Shown: positions 7,447 through 12,310 of the stretch, piece by piece
How the letters are laid out: each line of letters opens with the position of its first letter
Position numbering within the stretch: position 1 is the stretch's first letter
Source: Candidatus Saccharimonadales bacterium
GTDB lineage: Bacteria; Patescibacteriota; Saccharimonadia; Saccharimonadales; JACQNP01
DNA length: 64,000 bases
Assembly: GCA_038257245.1 (NCBI GenBank)
Contig: JBBSJL010000002.1
Span: 5,588-69,587, forward strand
Direction: 5' to 3'
Position numbers and translations under genes: made by a program
The notes under the pieces: model-generated
Told to the model about the DNA's origin: nothing
Databases searched by the model: none
What the model saw: only the letters and a program-made list of their open reading frames with translations

Positions 7447-8724
7447 TTATTTACTTAGGGCCTTGATTATTTGCTGAACACTCAATACCTGTGAGGTGCC
7501 TGTCGTTAAATCTTTTAGTCCGTATTTCTTTTGCTCGAGTTCTGAATCACCAATAAAGATCACATATTTTAAGCCTTGTTTATCTGCGTTTTTTATCTGT
7601 TTATCTATCTTTCTGCCAGTTGAATCGACTGAAACATTAACGCCAGAGTCACGTAGTTCTGAAACCACTTCTTGTGCTCTTATGTAATTATCACCAATCA
7701 CACAAACAGCCACATCTGTTTCTGGCGCTATATCTGGCAATAATTTGTTAGTTTCAAGAAAATTTTGTAAAGTAACATCCCCCATGCCGAAGCCAACTGT
7801 TGGGATTGGTTCAACACCGAATAGGCCAACCAAACCGTCGAAGCGTCCGCCTCCAAACATTGACCTGTTATTAGTAGGGCTTGTATCAAAGACCTCGAAA
7901 ACTATATCTGTGTAGTAATCGAAACCCCGCATAAGCGATATGTCAAACACTGCATTATCAATTCCAATTTTTTGCAGTGAATCTAATACATTAACTAGCT
8001 CTTTGACCGAGCTAAGCTCTTTTAGTTCTTCCGGTAACTCGGTAATGTCACTTATTTGCAACAGCTTCGTGATCTGCGGAGCATTAGTGCCAACTAAATC
8101 TTTTAGTTGTTGCTTAAATTTGTCTGCAGGCAATTTATTCATTCGATCAATTAGCTTAACCAGGTCGCGTACGACTCGTTTATCAAGCTTAAAGTAACCA
8201 GAGAGCACGCTGTCGACTAATTTTCGACTGTTTAGCCTGATCTGATACGTGTCGGTCACAGCACCATACTCTTTCAGTATGCTGTCAGCAATTTGGATCA
8301 TTTCAAGCTCTGCCGAGACATTATCAATACCAAATACATCGACATTGAGTTGCCAGTGTTCACGCAACCGACCACGTTGTGGCCGCTCATATCTCCATAA
8401 GTTTGGTATAGAGTACCAGCGGGCTGGGTAGGCCAGCTCTTGGCGCTTGCCAGCCACCATTCTGGATACGGTTGGCGTCATTTCGGGCCTAATAACAACT
8501 TGACGACCACCCCTGTCTTCGAACTGATAGGTCTGTTCGTTTACGATCTCTTCGCCTGATTTAGCCGTATAAAGATCTAGCGGCTCAAGGATTGGGGCAT
8601 CGTACTCTTGGTAACCGTATTTTTCTACTACGCGCCGAAGAACAGCAAACATATATTTCTGAATTCGTTTATCCTCAGGATAAAAATCCCGAGCCCCTTT
8701 GTATGGTTGTGTTGAAAGACTCAT
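7447..8724 (-). CDS. hisS: Histidine--tRNA ligase (full length, with anticodon-binding domain)
   Basis: Class II HisRS motifs are present: motif 2 WRYERPQRGRLREHWQ and motif 3 GGGRFDGL. A C-terminal anticodon-binding-type domain is present (VAVCVIGD...KYVIFIGDSE). GAGG SD lies upstream. Confidence 0.92.
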   Translation of the reverse strand: MSLSTQPYKGARDFYPEDKRIQKYMFAVLRRVVEKYGYQEYDAPILEPLDLYTAKSGEEIVNEQTYQFEDRGGRQVVIRPEMTPTVSRMVAGKRQELAYPARWYSIPNLWRYERPQRGRLREHWQLNVDVFGIDNVSAELEMIQIADSILKEYGAVTDTYQIRLNSRKLVDSVLSGYFKLDKRVVRDLVKLIDRMNKLPADKFKQQLKDLVGTNAPQITKLLQISDITELPEELKELSSVKELVNVLDSLQKIGIDNAVFDISLMRGFDYYTDIVFEVFDTSPTNNRSMFGGGRFDGLVGLFGVEPIPTVGFGMGDVTLQNFLETNKLLPDIAPETDVAVCVIGDNYIRAQEVVSELRDSGVNVSVDSTGRKIDKQIKNADKQGLKYVIFIGDSELEQKKYGLKDLTTGTSQVLSVQQIIKALSK

Positions 8725-8736
8725 AATTTACCTCAA

Positions 8737-10029
8737 TTATACCTTATTTTTTCTTAATCGAATTCGTACTGCTTCGGCGTGTGCCCGCAAACCTTCAGCC
8801 TCTGCTATTGCTGTAATAGTAGGAGCTAATGATTTCAAACCTTTGTATGACAATGACTGGAATGTAACCTTTTTGACAAAGCTATCCAGCGAAACACCAC
8901 CATAACTGCGCGCCCAACCACCCGTAGGAAGTGTGTGATTAGTACCTGAAGCGTAGTCACCTGCACTTTCTGGTGAGTAGTTGCCTAAAAATACTGACCC
9001 AGCATTTGAAATCTCGCTGACCACTTTTTCTGCATCTTTTATGTTTAAAATAAGGTGTTCGGGTGCATACGTGTTTGCAAATTTTATCGCCTCATCGATT
9101 GATCCAAGTTTAACAATATACGAATTCTCAAGGGCAGCTCGTACAATATCCTTCCTGGGCAAGCCTTGAGACTGTAATTTTAATAGTTTCTTCACGGCCG
9201 CGATTAACACATCCTCTGTTGATACAAGGACTGCCTGACTGTCAGGGCCATGTTCTGCCTGGCTTAATATATCTGCTGCAACAAAAGCTGGATTTGCACT
9301 ATTATCTGCGATGACCATCACCTCAGAAGGACCTGCTGGCATATCAATTGCGACACCGTACTCACCCGCAAACTGCTTGGCCGTAGTTACAAACTGGTTG
9401 CCTGGACCAAAGATTTTATCGACCTTTGGCACTGATTCAGTCCCTAACGATAGGGCAGCGATCGCTTGAATGCCGCCGACGTTAACAACGGTAGTGGCTC
9501 CCACCAACAATGCAGCATAACAGATTGCCGGTGCAAGCTTTTCGCCTACACTAGGAGGGGTACACAATACAATTTCTTTGCAACCTGCAAGCTTAGCAGG
9601 AATGCCTAGCATCAGTACCGTTGAAACTAATGGTGCGCTGCCTCCGGGGACATACAGACCCACTCGTTCTACTGGCCTAGACTCCCTCCAGCAAACTACT
9701 CCAGGCATTGTACTGACAGTTTCTTGCAGTATGTCCGTTTTTTGAGCTAAGTGGAATTTCTTGATATTCTCTGCTGCCAGGTTAATGGCTATTCGTAAAG
9801 CCATCGGGGTTTTGTCGGCCCACTTTTTAAGATCTGCGTCTGCCGACACAATACTACTAAGGTCAACTCCATCAAACTTTTTTGTATAGGTTCGCAAACT
9901 CTCATCTCTACGCTTATAAACATCGGCAAATATTTGTCGACATAGCTCTTTAGTTATTGGAACATCGAACGCTGTGCGTTCACAAATTTTCGGCCACAAG
10001 TCTGGTTTAGGATAACTATATGTTTTCAT
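8737..10029 (-). CDS. hisD: Histidinol dehydrogenase
   Basis: 430 aa with HisD blocks (QAEHGPDSQ, GNYSPESAGDYASGTNHTLPT). A strong SD (AGGAGGGGAG) lies inside the hisG 3' end. Confidence 0.92.
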   Translation of the reverse strand: MKTYSYPKPDLWPKICERTAFDVPITKELCRQIFADVYKRRDESLRTYTKKFDGVDLSSIVSADADLKKWADKTPMALRIAINLAAENIKKFHLAQKTDILQETVSTMPGVVCWRESRPVERVGLYVPGGSAPLVSTVLMLGIPAKLAGCKEIVLCTPPSVGEKLAPAICYAALLVGATTVVNVGGIQAIAALSLGTESVPKVDKIFGPGNQFVTTAKQFAGEYGVAIDMPAGPSEVMVIADNSANPAFVAADILSQAEHGPDSQAVLVSTEDVLIAAVKKLLKLQSQGLPRKDIVRAALENSYIVKLGSIDEAIKFANTYAPEHLILNIKDAEKVVSEISNAGSVFLGNYSPESAGDYASGTNHTLPTGGWARSYGGVSLDSFVKKVTFQSLSYKGLKSLAPTITAIAEAEGLRAHAEAVRIRLRKNKV

Positions 10030-10666
10030 TGTCTCCCCTCCTAGCTATTAATATGGGATTGATGCCCATTATCTTCTCGACAATGGCTAAACCATTTATC
10101 TTTAATGTATCGCCTTTGCTGACTATGTCAACAGCTGCATCACACCCAACCAGACCTGGCATAATTTCAATACTCCCTGAATAAACATCCCCGTCAGCAG
10201 CATATATATTTACATCATTTGTTGCTGCATAGTTGTTTACGATATTAGGAAAACTCGTAGCCACTCTTATCAGTTTTCCATTGTAACCTGTTGGTCGTTC
10301 TGGAAAGGCACGTGAGCGTACTAGGTCAGCACGCTCCCTTGGTGCAAGCAGTGCTAAATAACACATAGGTTGGCCTATCCTTAGGTATGCTATGTATTTT
10401 CGATACATATTCTCTTTCTCCAGATACTGGTCGATACCAGTCACCCCAACGTCTCCAAAACCATTACCAACAAGTTTAGGTACATCACTAGCACTCACAC
10501 TAAAGAATCTCCTACCTAGCGATATAGCTGAGTATTCTCTTTCCTTAAATTTCGGAACTTCTATTCCTGTAGTTTCTTCGAATGCAACAACTGCAGATCG
10601 ACAGTCTTTACTTTTTGGTAACAATATTCTTTCTGCCGACTGTGCGGCTTCTATCCAATTATTCAC
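10016..10666 (-). CDS. hisG: ATP phosphoribosyltransferase, short form
   Basis: 216 aa with HisG-like blocks (SDVPKLVGNGFGDVGVTGID, RVATSFPN, GSIEIMPGLVGCDAAVDIVSKGDTLKINGL). GTG start follows AAAGGAG. It overlaps hisD by 14 nt. Its length indicates the short form, which lacks the C-terminal regulatory domain. Confidence 0.85.
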   Translation of the reverse strand: MNNWIEAAQSAERILLPKSKDCRSAVVAFEETTGIEVPKFKEREYSAISLGRRFFSVSASDVPKLVGNGFGDVGVTGIDQYLEKENMYRKYIAYLRIGQPMCYLALLAPRERADLVRSRAFPERPTGYNGKLIRVATSFPNIVNNYAATNDVNIYAADGDVYSGSIEIMPGLVGCDAAVDIVSKGDTLKINGLAIVEKIMGINPILIARRGDNENI

Positions 10667-10697
10667 TATATTTCTCCTTTATTTATTATTTAATACT

Positions 10698-10724
10698 AAA
10701 AAACGCCAGAGTGATCTGGCGTTT
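10698..10724 (-). terminator. Rho-independent terminator in the tRNA-Leu / hisG intergenic region
   Basis: Minus strand reads AAACGCCAGA-tcac-TCTGGCGTTT followed by TTT. This is a 10-bp stem with a 4-nt loop and a run of 6 T. It ends about 30 nt before the hisG GTG. Confidence 0.78.
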
Positions 10725-10746
10725 GAATTTTCATAGAAATTAAAAA

Positions 10747-10803
10747 CTAACCGATCAGCTCCGGCGACATATGTACATGATGTAGATTAGTTAGATAAAG
10801 CAT
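10747..10803 (-). other. Candidate leaderless 18-codon leader ORF MLYLTNLHHVHMSPELIG
   Basis: The ATG (10803..10801) lies 7 nt after a consensus -10. Three of codons 8-11 are His (CAT CAT GTA CAT). TAG stop at 10749..10747, 22 nt before the terminator stem. Speculative. Confidence 0.25.
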
Positions 10804-10810
10804 AATCACT

Positions 10811-10839
10811 ATTATATTCTTCTTACGTTTATTTGTCAA
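10811..10839 (-). promoter_or_regulatory. Consensus sigma70 promoter TTGACA-17-TATAAT
   Basis: Minus strand reads TTGACA (10839..10834), a 17-nt spacer, then TATAAT (10816..10811). All 12 hexamer positions match consensus with optimal spacing. It sits immediately downstream of the tRNA-Leu 3' end. Confidence 0.6.
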
Positions 10840-10848
10840 TACACGATC

Positions 10849-10933
10849 TGGTGGGCGAGAAAGGACTTGAACCTTCACGCCTTGCGGCACATGCTCCTAA
10901 GGCATGCGTGTCTACCAATTCCACCACTCGCCC
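10849..10933 (-). tRNA. tRNA-Leu (anticodon UAG), type II long variable arm, CCA encoded
   Basis: Reverse complement is GGGCGAGTGGTGGAATTGGTAGACACGCATGCCTTAGGAGCATGTGCCGCAAGGCGTGAAGGTTCAAGTCCTTTCTCGCCCACCA. Acceptor stem is GGGCGAG/CTCGCCC. Anticodon stem is CATGC/GCATG with loop CTTAGGA. T-arm is AAGG-TTCAAGT-CCTT. Confidence 0.93.
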
Positions 10934-10958
10934 GTAGATGAGTATGACAAGAGAAATT

Positions 10959-11492
10959 TTAACTGATTCGGCGATAAAATGCTAGCTCAGAATCGCCATA
11001 ATTTTTTCGTGATAACTCCAGGAACTGTTCAGCATCAATCGGATACCTATAAGTTGGTGGCAAAGATGCAACAAGTATCCCTTTAACTTTTATATGTCTA
11101 ATTAGTTTGTCCAAAACACCCGGGTGGACATCGTTGTACGGAGGATCGAGAATTACGACATCGAATGTCATGTCTTTATGCCGGTCTGACCATCCCCCGG
11201 CATTGGCCTTAATCACTGTTGCGCAGTTTGTTAGATCGAGCTTTTCGACATTAACTACAATAGTTTGATAAGCTTTGTTATCTGTATCAATTATCGTTGA
11301 GCTGGCACCACGGCTACAGGCCTCAATACCGATAGCGCCGCTACCTCCAAATGCATCTAGTACTTTTAATCCATTTATGTCGCCTAGAGACGAAAATAAC
11401 GCCCCACGTATTTTTTCTGACATGGGATGAGTACGATGCCCATTGGGTGAAGTTAATGTTCGCCCGCCCAATTTTCCTGAGATTACTCTCAC
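10959..11492 (-). CDS. rsmD: 16S rRNA (guanine966-N2)-methyltransferase
   Basis: 177 aa with the RsmD pattern: RVISGKLGGRTL, RPMSEKIRGALFS-like block, LDAFGGSGAIGIEACSRGA, DPPY. Confidence 0.88.
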   Translation of the reverse strand: MRVISGKLGGRTLTSPNGHRTHPMSEKIRGALFSSLGDINGLKVLDAFGGSGAIGIEACSRGASSTIIDTDNKAYQTIVVNVEKLDLTNCATVIKANAGGWSDRHKDMTFDVVILDPPYNDVHPGVLDKLIRHIKVKGILVASLPPTYRYPIDAEQFLELSRKNYGDSELAFYRRIS

Positions 11493-12310
11493 AGTTTTTC
11501 CTGAAGACCAGCTTCAACCATAGCAAGATACCAAGTAAGCGTAACTGTTTGAACAATTATTGGTCCTAGCTTGTGACGTACCTGCCATGTCATTTTTGGT
11601 GTCCAGCCCTTTTTAGCATAATTATTATACATATCCAGTACGGCTATCTCTCGTGCAGCTCTTACAAATAGTTCTGAGACCCCAATTTCCTGGGCATTTA
11701 TAATCATTTTTTTCTTAGGCACGGCTTCATTAAAAGTAAGCGGTTTAATGATGGCTGCTACGCCAAATTCAAAAAATCCATGCGTGCTTAGTAGACCTCT
11801 AGGCCCCCACATTTTCCAATTGTTTTTTATCATGTCCCTTTTGGTATCGCCAGGCATGACAAGTTTTGTTTTCATACTGTCTCTGGTGCTTAGAGGTTCT
11901 CCGCCTCTAATATCAGTCAATTTTTCTTCATATGGGTAATGGTGAGCTGGGGTAAGACCGTCAACAATTGCGTGTGCTAACCATGCTGCCTCGAAACTAC
12001 TCCGTTCATTATTTTTGGCCTTTAAATGGGCAATAAGATGTTCGTAGTGCTGGTCTATTAACATGACTATTTCTAAGTCGTCGTCGTCAAACGGGTTGAA
12101 ATAATGCCAAGGTTCATCTTTGGCAGGACTCTTTCTTTTAATACCGTCTGGGCCATTTTTACCTTCAAAAACTAATATTGATCGGATCTTCGGGAAACTA
12201 TCTTTACTGCTGGTAATTTTAGATAAATGTCGCCTAGAAACACTGTCTAGTTTTTGATGAGCACCAACAATACGCCCAGAATATTTAGTTAATGTTGTTC
12301 CTGAATACAC
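11489..12310 (-). CDS. Zinc-dependent phospholipase C / S1-P1 nuclease superfamily-like protein
   Basis: 273 aa. It contains H-x3-D-x5-H (HAIVDGLTPAH), which matches the zinc-ligand motif of Bacillus cereus PLC (HYLGDVNQPMH). An upstream WHYFNPFD resembles PLC SHFYDPD. It overlaps rsmD by 4 nt. Confidence 0.5.
   Translation of the reverse strand: MYSGTTLTKYSGRIVGAHQKLDSVSRRHLSKITSSKDSFPKIRSILVFEGKNGPDGIKRKSPAKDEPWHYFNPFDDDDLEIVMLIDQHYEHLIAHLKAKNNERSSFEAAWLAHAIVDGLTPAHHYPYEEKLTDIRGGEPLSTRDSMKTKLVMPGDTKRDMIKNNWKMWGPRGLLSTHGFFEFGVAAIIKPLTFNEAVPKKKMIINAQEIGVSELFVRAAREIAVLDMYNNYAKKGWTPKMTWQVRHKLGPIIVQTVTLTWYLAMVEAGLQEKL

Follow-up and report, generated by a model that had tools for sequence, protein, structure and literature searches.

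What controls the histidine operon hisG-hisD-hisS in a Candidatus Saccharimonadales bacterium? The question is raised by a stretch of 64,000 nucleotides (nt) from contig JBBSJL010000002.1 (assembly GCA_038257245.1, positions 5,588 to 69,587), referred to here as the window, in which a strong promoter, a short open reading frame (ORF) with histidine (His) codons and an intrinsic terminator are located directly upstream of hisG. In the original prediction, made from the letters of the window, this leader was described as a candidate His attenuator or, alternatively, as a small RNA (sRNA) gene. Our computational analysis supports the first of these proposals. The leader is a real, conserved cis-regulatory switch, and we consider it very probable that it works as a ribosome-mediated leader-peptide transcription attenuator, which senses charged tRNA-His (the transfer RNA for histidine) and controls hisG-hisD-hisS. 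More than 100 other genomes contain the whole arrangement, and its features suggest a new form of ribosome-mediated attenuation.

The leader of hisG-hisD-hisS and its relatives

All leader features of the window lie on the minus strand (Table 1). The sigma-70 type promoter matches the consensus at 12 of 12 positions, is the single such match between positions 9000 and 13000, and starts 9 nt past the 3′ end of a tRNA-Leu gene. The ATG of the leader ORF is located 7 nt 3′ of the -10 hexamer, and three of codons 8 to 11 encode His, exactly as had been described. A second, 12-codon ORF, also noticed in the original prediction, passes through the terminator, whose 10-base-pair (bp) stem is followed by six U residues. 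From the end of the U-tract there are 31 nt to the GTG of hisG, which fits the previously given distance of about 30 nt, and 17 nt to its Shine-Dalgarno (SD) sequence; no promoter-like site is present in these 31 nt, again in agreement with the prediction. The identity of the three downstream genes was borne out by Pfam, their products being a short-form HisG of 216 amino acids (aa), HisD, and a complete HisRS that includes an anticodon-binding domain.

The window HisG has only three database relatives, and the relatives of its HisD are named Patescibacteria, Saccharimonadales or Saccharibacteria; a scan of genome contigs with the window HisG revealed no relatives, and six aligned HisG sequences proved too divergent to serve as a query. 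On a syntenic contig (L001), whose HisG is 53% identical to that of the window, the same leader precedes hisG. Its ORF again has 18 codons (MVYTANQHHVHMLPEMIG), its terminator carries a compensatory change from A-U to G-C, and the N-terminus of its HisG is consistent with the hisG start position given here. A more distant locus (L004; HisG 29% identical, found by tblastn) contains the leader ORF MFVITNQLHVHIPPLYVG and an antiterminator with GUCGG:CCGAC in place of GAUCGG:CC(A)GAUC. The leader is kept 5′ of hisG in relatives with HisG proteins that are only 29-53% identical. The gene order hisG-hisD-hisS behind the leader is the same in L001, L004 and a further locus, L005.

Further relatives were collected with two DNA patterns. 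The first, built from five leaders and with H-x-H imposed, was searched against GTDB species genomes and gave at least 119 places, most of them titled Saccharibacteria, Saccharimonadales or Patescibacteria; the family members among the places listed came from metagenome-assembled genomes only. About 40 of the places were in unrelated taxa, among them identical matches in Streptococcus, Gemella and Lachnoanaerobaculum contigs. Most of these contained no in-frame ORF of the family kind starting with ATG, and all were discarded as chance matches. The second pattern, used on metagenomes, specified the antiterminator strand and the terminator only and left the His codons unspecified; it gave 44 metagenome contigs with 43 unique leaders, called here the His-blind set. 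Together, the leaders form a large and apparently undescribed family of more than 100 members, almost all from Saccharibacteria (Patescibacteria), in which conservation extends to the mini-ORF, its His codons and the terminator, the very point on which the original prediction had proposed to be judged. No second copy of the element is present in the window. A few members occur on contigs binned elsewhere, namely in Bacillota (L063), Limnocylindrales (L067) and Pseudonocardiaceae (L082) metagenome-assembled genomes (MAGs); these contigs are probably mis-binned. The one in the Limnocylindrales MAG carries a Saccharibacteria-like HisS downstream (56% identity).

The genes downstream link the family to histidine. 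Among the mini-ORF loci with enough sequence, hisS lies on the same strand within 5 kilobases (kb) downstream in 64 of 68, and it is directly adjacent to the leader in 16. The genes between leader and hisS include HisG-PRA-PH fusions, HisG with HisD, and a HisF-HisH fusion, as well as M20 and S66 peptidases, a HAD hydrolase and several families without a Pfam match; where they are recognisable, the intervening genes are histidine-related.

Mutually exclusive helices

The original prediction contained no convincing antiterminator. Folding of the leader (positions 10805-10690) with RNAfold reveals one, since the minimum free energy (MFE) structure is the antiterminator itself, at -25.8 kcal/mol (z = -2.9). 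It consists of 20 bp in two parts, in which the strand 10766-10744 pairs with AAACGCC(A)GAUCACUCUGGCG, that is, with both halves of the terminator, and its 5′ strand coincides with the end of the leader ORF, comprising six sense codons and the stop. When the terminator is enforced, the energy is -22.9 kcal/mol, and a 5′ hairpin, P1, then forms (CUAACU:GGUUAG, followed by a conserved UUU; -8.4 kcal/mol, z = 0.6).

Both helices are conserved. In an alignment of 73 leader sequences, 87.6% of the terminator cells are paired and three of its pairs show compensatory changes; for the antiterminator, 83.8% are paired. For each of them, none of 500 shuffles matched the observed percentage of pairing, the number of both-side changes or the covariation score, and in slid registers pairing falls to 30-52%. 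The antiterminator pairs 30:112 and 31:111 are unbroken throughout, and their types follow those of the terminator pairs 98:112 and 99:111, so that alignment columns 30, 98 and 112 covary three ways (GC in 47 sequences, AU in 17-18). RNAalifold, given no hint, chose the outer helix of the antiterminator for its consensus structure. Swapping the partner strands between leaders raised the mean energy of the antiterminator duplexes from -25.3 to -18.2 kcal/mol (permutation p<2e-4), and from -25.2 to -20.0 kcal/mol in the mini-ORF class alone; the terminator hairpins have a mean of -14.9 kcal/mol. Two mutually exclusive helices have been conserved, which indicates a switch and not a single fold. 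The conservation pattern also points to purifying selection on both the ORF and the helices.

These results bear on the proposal that the unit between promoter and terminator is a stand-alone sRNA of about 105 nt acting in trans, with the ORF and its His codons being incidental. The strong promoter and the strong terminator do bound a unit of this length, and its fold has a z-score as low as that given above. Moreover, action in trans of terminated attenuator RNAs is known from other systems, for example rnTrpL of Sinorhizobium (PMC6614838). However, the unit always lies on the same strand just 5′ of hisS or his genes, its ORF length and the spacing from His codons to stop are fixed, all leaders of the His-blind set have in-frame His codons with almost none in the other frames, and the conserved structure is a switch. 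It also has no Rfam match: cmscan of positions 9500-12000 (E up to 10) returned tRNA only, with neither RF00514 nor a T-box. The sub-threshold matches to HPnc0260 and NrrF reflected terminator and AT-rich similarity only and were rejected. The sRNA proposal was thus left without specific support, and we regard it as highly improbable; a secondary role in trans of the terminated leader RNA is possible.

Predicted translation of the leader ORF and the proposed attenuation mechanism

In the His-blind set, 43 of 43 leaders contain 2-4 in-frame His codons (H-H-x-H), and the last 14 codons hold a mean of 2.84 His in frame, compared with 0.19 and 0.07 when read in either of the remaining frames. The peptide consensus of this set is (T)NQ-H-H-x-H-[ILMT]-x-P-E-x-x-G-stop, and the His motif is followed by the stop codon at a distance of 10 codons in 108 of 115 leaders. 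At His positions 1 and 2, a mixture of CAT and CAC is found, and the codon between them and the third His is free. The second ORF of the window behaves differently from what had been suggested. According to the original prediction, a ribosome stalled on its His codon, which sits in the terminator loop, could mask the terminator; a comparable ORF occurs in only 8 of the 115 leaders and is absent in L001. The loop His codon is not conserved, and the CAC is part of a stretch showing covariation with the UGAUC further upstream.

The position of the start codon is also constrained. In the 77 mini-ORF relatives whose -10 hexamer matches at 5 or 6 of its six positions, the distance from the end of the hexamer to the ATG is 6-7 nt in 50 and 8-12 nt in 23, an extended TGn -10 is found in 46, the ORF has 17-19 codons in 72, and an SD-like motif before the ORF is found in none. 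A start codon at the predicted transcription start implies a leaderless messenger RNA (mRNA), and the leader transcript is predicted to be of this kind. The same geometry recurs at nine of the 51 long ORFs of the window, compared with 2.7% of all ATGs; in these nine, a -10 hexamer, often TGn-extended, lies 6-9 nt before the ATG, and an SD sequence has no room. This makes leaderless initiation plausible in the organism, and the counts suggest that leaderless mRNAs are widespread in its genome.

The consequences of translation were modelled by ribosome masking, in which the covered RNA is removed and the leading edge is placed +13 nt from the A site, a conservative footprint. With the A site at codon 8 or 9, the antiterminator stays the MFE structure (-24.4 and -23.0 kcal/mol, respectively), and with the ribosome at the stop codon the terminator alone remains. 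In the model, this outcome is the classical logic of attenuation.

The conserved ORF, its His codons, the terminator, the covarying exclusive helices, the promoter-to-ATG geometry and the link to hisS are observed; for the transcription start site, the translation of the ORF, the stalling and the response to histidine, we infer the following course. Transcription would start at, or within one nucleotide of, the ATG at 10803, and a ribosome would load on the 5′-terminal AUG without an SD sequence. When histidine is plentiful, the ribosome would reach the UAG and there cover the 5′ strand of the antiterminator (10766-10744); the terminator (10724-10698) would then fold, and RNA polymerase would stop. 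When His-tRNA-His is scarce, the ribosome would stall at codons 8, 9 and 11, block the 5′ strand of P1 (CUAACU) and leave 10766-10744 free to pair with both terminator halves in the 20-bp bipartite antiterminator. The polymerase would then enter hisG-hisD-hisS, leading to more histidine supply and more HisRS. P1 may serve as a pause or anti-antiterminator hairpin.

Several observations weigh against this mechanism. The H-x-H motif was imposed in the first pattern, and the His counts are unbiased in the second set only. The His codons of the window are just three and are not contiguous. A ribosome stalled at the third His, with its edge at +13 nt, masks the outer antiterminator strand, and this His is among the best conserved; in the model, a stall at codon 11 would be compatible with the switch only if pairing can start as close as about 8-9 nt to the A site. 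In the His-blind set, 38 of 38 leaders use CAT for the third His, which hints at an additional RNA-level constraint on CAUAU, superfluous to the model. Conservation of the peptide outside the His residues (TNQ and PE..G-stop) is in large part due to RNA pairing and so provides no independent evidence for translation. Finally, P1 is weakly supported by the alignment, with 63% of cells paired and a swap result of -6.8 kcal/mol for cognate and -5.6 kcal/mol for swapped strands.

Some of these observations would also fit a switch that is real but set by a factor other than the ribosome, such as a riboswitch or T-box-like RNA, a HutP- or TRAP-like protein, or a nascent peptide acting as a sensor of free histidine. 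CAU-CAU-NNN-CAU-AU is highly conserved, with the third His always CAU, the His codons number only three, and translation of the leaderless ORF is a prediction. Against this stands the variation of the first two His positions between the synonymous CAT and CAC around a free intervening codon, which indicates conservation at the level of codons; the ATG is also kept at the predicted transcription start site, and the ORF length is fixed. No T-box or riboswitch model matched at E up to 10, and only about 35 nt precede the antiterminator strand in the leader, a length that would not accommodate a T-box. Past the His motif, the residues differ between the mini-ORFs (PE..G) and the related hisR genes described below (PARA[EVD]) while the pairing is kept, which argues against a sequence-specific arrest peptide. 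Control by such a factor is, in our view, improbable, and ribosome-mediated attenuation is the reading retained here.

Table 1. Coordinates of the leader, its operon and related features (window positions unless a locus is named)
Feature	Position	Strand	Remarks
Sigma-70 type promoter	10839-10811	-	TTGACA 10839-10834, 17-nt spacer, TATAAT 10816-10811
tRNA-Leu	10849-10933	-	
Leader ORF MLYLTNLHHVHMSPELIG	10803-10747	-	18 codons; ATG 10803-10801, TAG 10749-10747; no SD sequence
His codons CAT CAT GTA CAT	10782-10771	-	codons 8, 9 and 11: 10782-10780, 10779-10777, 10773-10771
P1 helix, 5′ strand CUAACU.AUC	10794-10785	-	partner GAU.CGGUUAG 10757-10747
Antiterminator, 5′ strand CGCCGGAG(C)UGAUCGGU(UA)GUUU	10766-10744	-	MFE fold, covariation, RNAalifold
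Second mini-ORF MKIQTPDHSGVF	ATG 10734	-	12 codons; passes through terminator
Terminator AAACGCCAGA-tcac-TCTGGCGTTT	10724-10701	-	10-bp stem AAACGCCAGA/UCUGGCGUUU, loop UCAC; U6 10703-10698
hisG SD sequence and start	10680-10664	-	AAAGGAG 10680-10674; GTG 10666
Operon hisG-hisD-hisS	7447-10666	-	hisG 10016-10666, hisD 8737-10029, hisS 7447-8724 (Pfam)
ORFs with leaderless geometry	5600 (clpP), 16534, 26490, 29092, 34166, 43806, 51334 and others		-10 hexamer spacing
hisR-type locus L005	1899-2320 (L005)		
hisR-type locus L006	1930-2350 (L006)		

The leader ORF and the repressor HisR

The mini-ORF of the window is homologous to the last 12-17 or so codons of hisR from Saccharibacteria. In four of the collected loci (L002, L003, L005, L006) and in 14 others, the mini-ORF is replaced by a HisR-like gene of the TrpR family (YerC/YecD, PF01371) that encodes 108-110 aa, and in related Saccharibacteria this hisR-type gene is located directly 5′ of hisG. 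Its product ends in ...HH-x-H-I-[PS]-P-A-R-A-[EVD]-stop, and the terminator stem has its upstream copy (CGCCAGC) within the codons for [SP]-P-A, so that the His tail is part of a terminator/antiterminator switch preceding hisG. Among the top 120 homologues of the HisR-like protein, the last 16 residues contain H-x-H in 115 and HH-x-H in 105. The solved homologues of HisR (PDB 3G1C and 3FRW) align to residues 11-98 only of the 110-aa Saccharibacteria protein, which places the His tail outside the shared fold. All 17 hisR-type promoters have the form TTGACA-N17-TAAAGT with the ATG 6-7 nt further on and are thus predicted to be leaderless, and in all 17 genes a palindrome, CTTTACTTTGGTAAAG (CTTTAC-N4-GTAAAG), lies over the -10 hexamer, as a putative operator by which hisR would regulate its own expression. 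Two loci are intermediates (L121 and L142), being hisR-type ORFs with a mini-ORF-like tail, PERVG or PERLG. Both forms, mini-ORF and hisR-type leader (L007 and L071), occur in MAG JTS-RE36; if its binning is correct, they can coexist in one organism.

HisR has been described as a histidine repressor of the TrpR family (YerC/YecD) of fewer than 100 aa, found in Firmicutes and a few other phyla, Patescibacteria not being among them (PMC9413887); the Saccharibacteria protein, at 108-110 aa, is longer. We tentatively propose that the His attenuator and the HisR repressor of Saccharibacteria may be one evolutionary and functional module, in which translation of the repressor serves as the attenuator's leader peptide, a proposal that we hold to be slightly less likely than not. 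If it is true, one gene would sense both free histidine, by means of its protein, and the charging of tRNA-His, by means of ribosomes that stall on its final codons, and the 18-codon ORF would be either a remnant of hisR after genome reduction had removed the repressor body or its precursor. A repressor gene and a leader peptide with a common 3′ module would represent an unusual evolutionary route, and this relationship to the HisR tail appears to be the most novel aspect of the element. Control of the window operon by HisR itself was rejected, since tblastn found no hisR gene in the window and the hisR-type operator occurs there no more often than by chance, with none at the leader promoter.

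The homology to the 3′ end of hisR raises another explanation, in which the mini-ORF is a dead relic of hisR, the hairpin is the terminator of hisR or of rsmD-tRNA-Leu, and the operon is driven by another promoter. In its favour, no terminator was found between tRNA-Leu and the leader promoter in the window (10849-10840), a promoter-like site matching at 10 of 12 positions lies within hisG (10131-10104), and a TATAAT is found 11 nt before the ATG of hisS. A relic would decay, whereas more than 100 independent lineages keep the ORF, the His codons, the ATG placed by the promoter and the covarying helices, which argues against one. Furthermore, the leader is found together with hisG or hisS, and not with tRNA-Leu, in L001 and in the majority of relatives; the tRNA-Leu gene of L001 is separated from it by 1.7 kb and two genes and has a terminator of its own, contrary to the suggestion that the hairpin might serve only the tRNA-Leu/rsmD operon. 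The terminator-hisG interval, as noted, holds no promoter-like site. We therefore consider a relic extremely improbable and the adjacency of tRNA-Leu incidental. Because the gap contains no terminator, read-through from rsmD-tRNA-Leu would enter the leader and probably halt at its terminator, so that the leader hairpin may terminate tRNA-Leu in the window as a side effect. A tRNA 3′ end directly 5′ of the leader was also observed in two relatives (L078 and L094). The TATAAT before hisS (8750-8725, minus strand), with GAGG between it and the ATG, could be a candidate internal promoter that provides basal hisS expression without the attenuator.

Known attenuators and neighbouring genes

Coupling of synthetase expression to the charging of the cognate tRNA is known from the pheST attenuator of Escherichia coli, with its pheM leader peptide, and from the hisS T-boxes of Gram-positive bacteria. 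The pheM leader has an SD sequence and Phe codons, while T-boxes sense uncharged tRNA directly, their leaders being about 200 nt or more in length and containing no ORF. Similarly, the window leader is proposed to place a synthetase gene under transcription attenuation tied to the cognate tRNA. Unlike a T-box, it is only about 105 nt long, has an ORF and matches no T-box model. It resembles the enterobacterial hisL (RF00514, His_leader) in having a short ORF with His codons 5′ of hisG, an intrinsic terminator and an antiterminator whose 5′ strand is covered by the ribosome at the leader stop codon, and in the signal that it is proposed to sense, tRNA-His charging. It differs from hisL in its three non-contiguous His residues (H-H-x-H, compared with seven in a row), in the missing SD sequence and predicted leaderless start, in the bipartite antiterminator that engages both terminator halves, in the presence of hisS in the operon, and in the host phylum, Saccharibacteria.

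Attenuators with a His leader peptide are known from Proteobacteria and have been predicted for a few Firmicutes (PMC9413887, PMC2965389). The candidates include one at a hisS paralogue/hisZ of the Bacillus cereus group (PMC2965389), and others at his operons of the B. cereus group, Peptostreptococcaceae and Erysipelotrichales (PMC9413887); a T-box upstream of hisS has also been described (PMC2965389). By their description, these Firmicutes candidates, which belong to different lineages, are like the window element in having predicted leader peptides with 3-5 His codons and a terminator/antiterminator outside Proteobacteria, with one class 5′ of a hisS paralogue. Neither paper contains Saccharibacteria or Patescibacteria, the leaderless geometry or the link to the HisR tail (PMC2965389, PMC9413887). 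In mycobacteria, leaderless polycysteine short ORFs were reported as attenuators (bioRxiv 10.1101/834739). As described there, they share with the window element a short ORF at the 5′ end of the transcript, in which codons for one amino acid tie operon expression to its supply, but they sense Cys and belong to Actinobacteria, whereas the window element would sense His; it has a canonical intrinsic terminator/antiterminator pair.

In the literature searched, whose coverage was incomplete so that an earlier description is possible, we found no report of this element and no attenuator or other cis-regulatory RNA in Patescibacteria. The genomes of these bacteria are tiny, very few regulatory elements have been described for them, and the leader would be the first candidate for the group. 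The family would provide a widespread example of amino-acid-responsive control of the essential synthetase gene hisS in these epibionts; it would show how attenuation could work without an SD sequence and suggests that leaderless translation is common in them.

In the window, the leader is preceded by recG, a gene of no known function, rsmD and tRNA-Leu, and hisS is followed by a gene for a 150-aa protein without known function, tig and clpP. Besides hisG and hisD, which encode the first and last enzymes of the pathway, no gene of his biosynthesis was found in the 64 kb; the remaining ones may be located elsewhere in the genome. In some relatives, recurrent uncharacterised genes lie under the leader (L014, 30-2827 nt past the terminator; L096, 14-2789 nt; L028; L041). 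One recurrent set is a trio encoding about 430, 270 and 226 aa without a Pfam match, and another consists of a 260-285-aa protein of no known function followed by an S66 LD-carboxypeptidase. The leader marks such genes as probably histidine-related, and they are candidates for functions of this kind.

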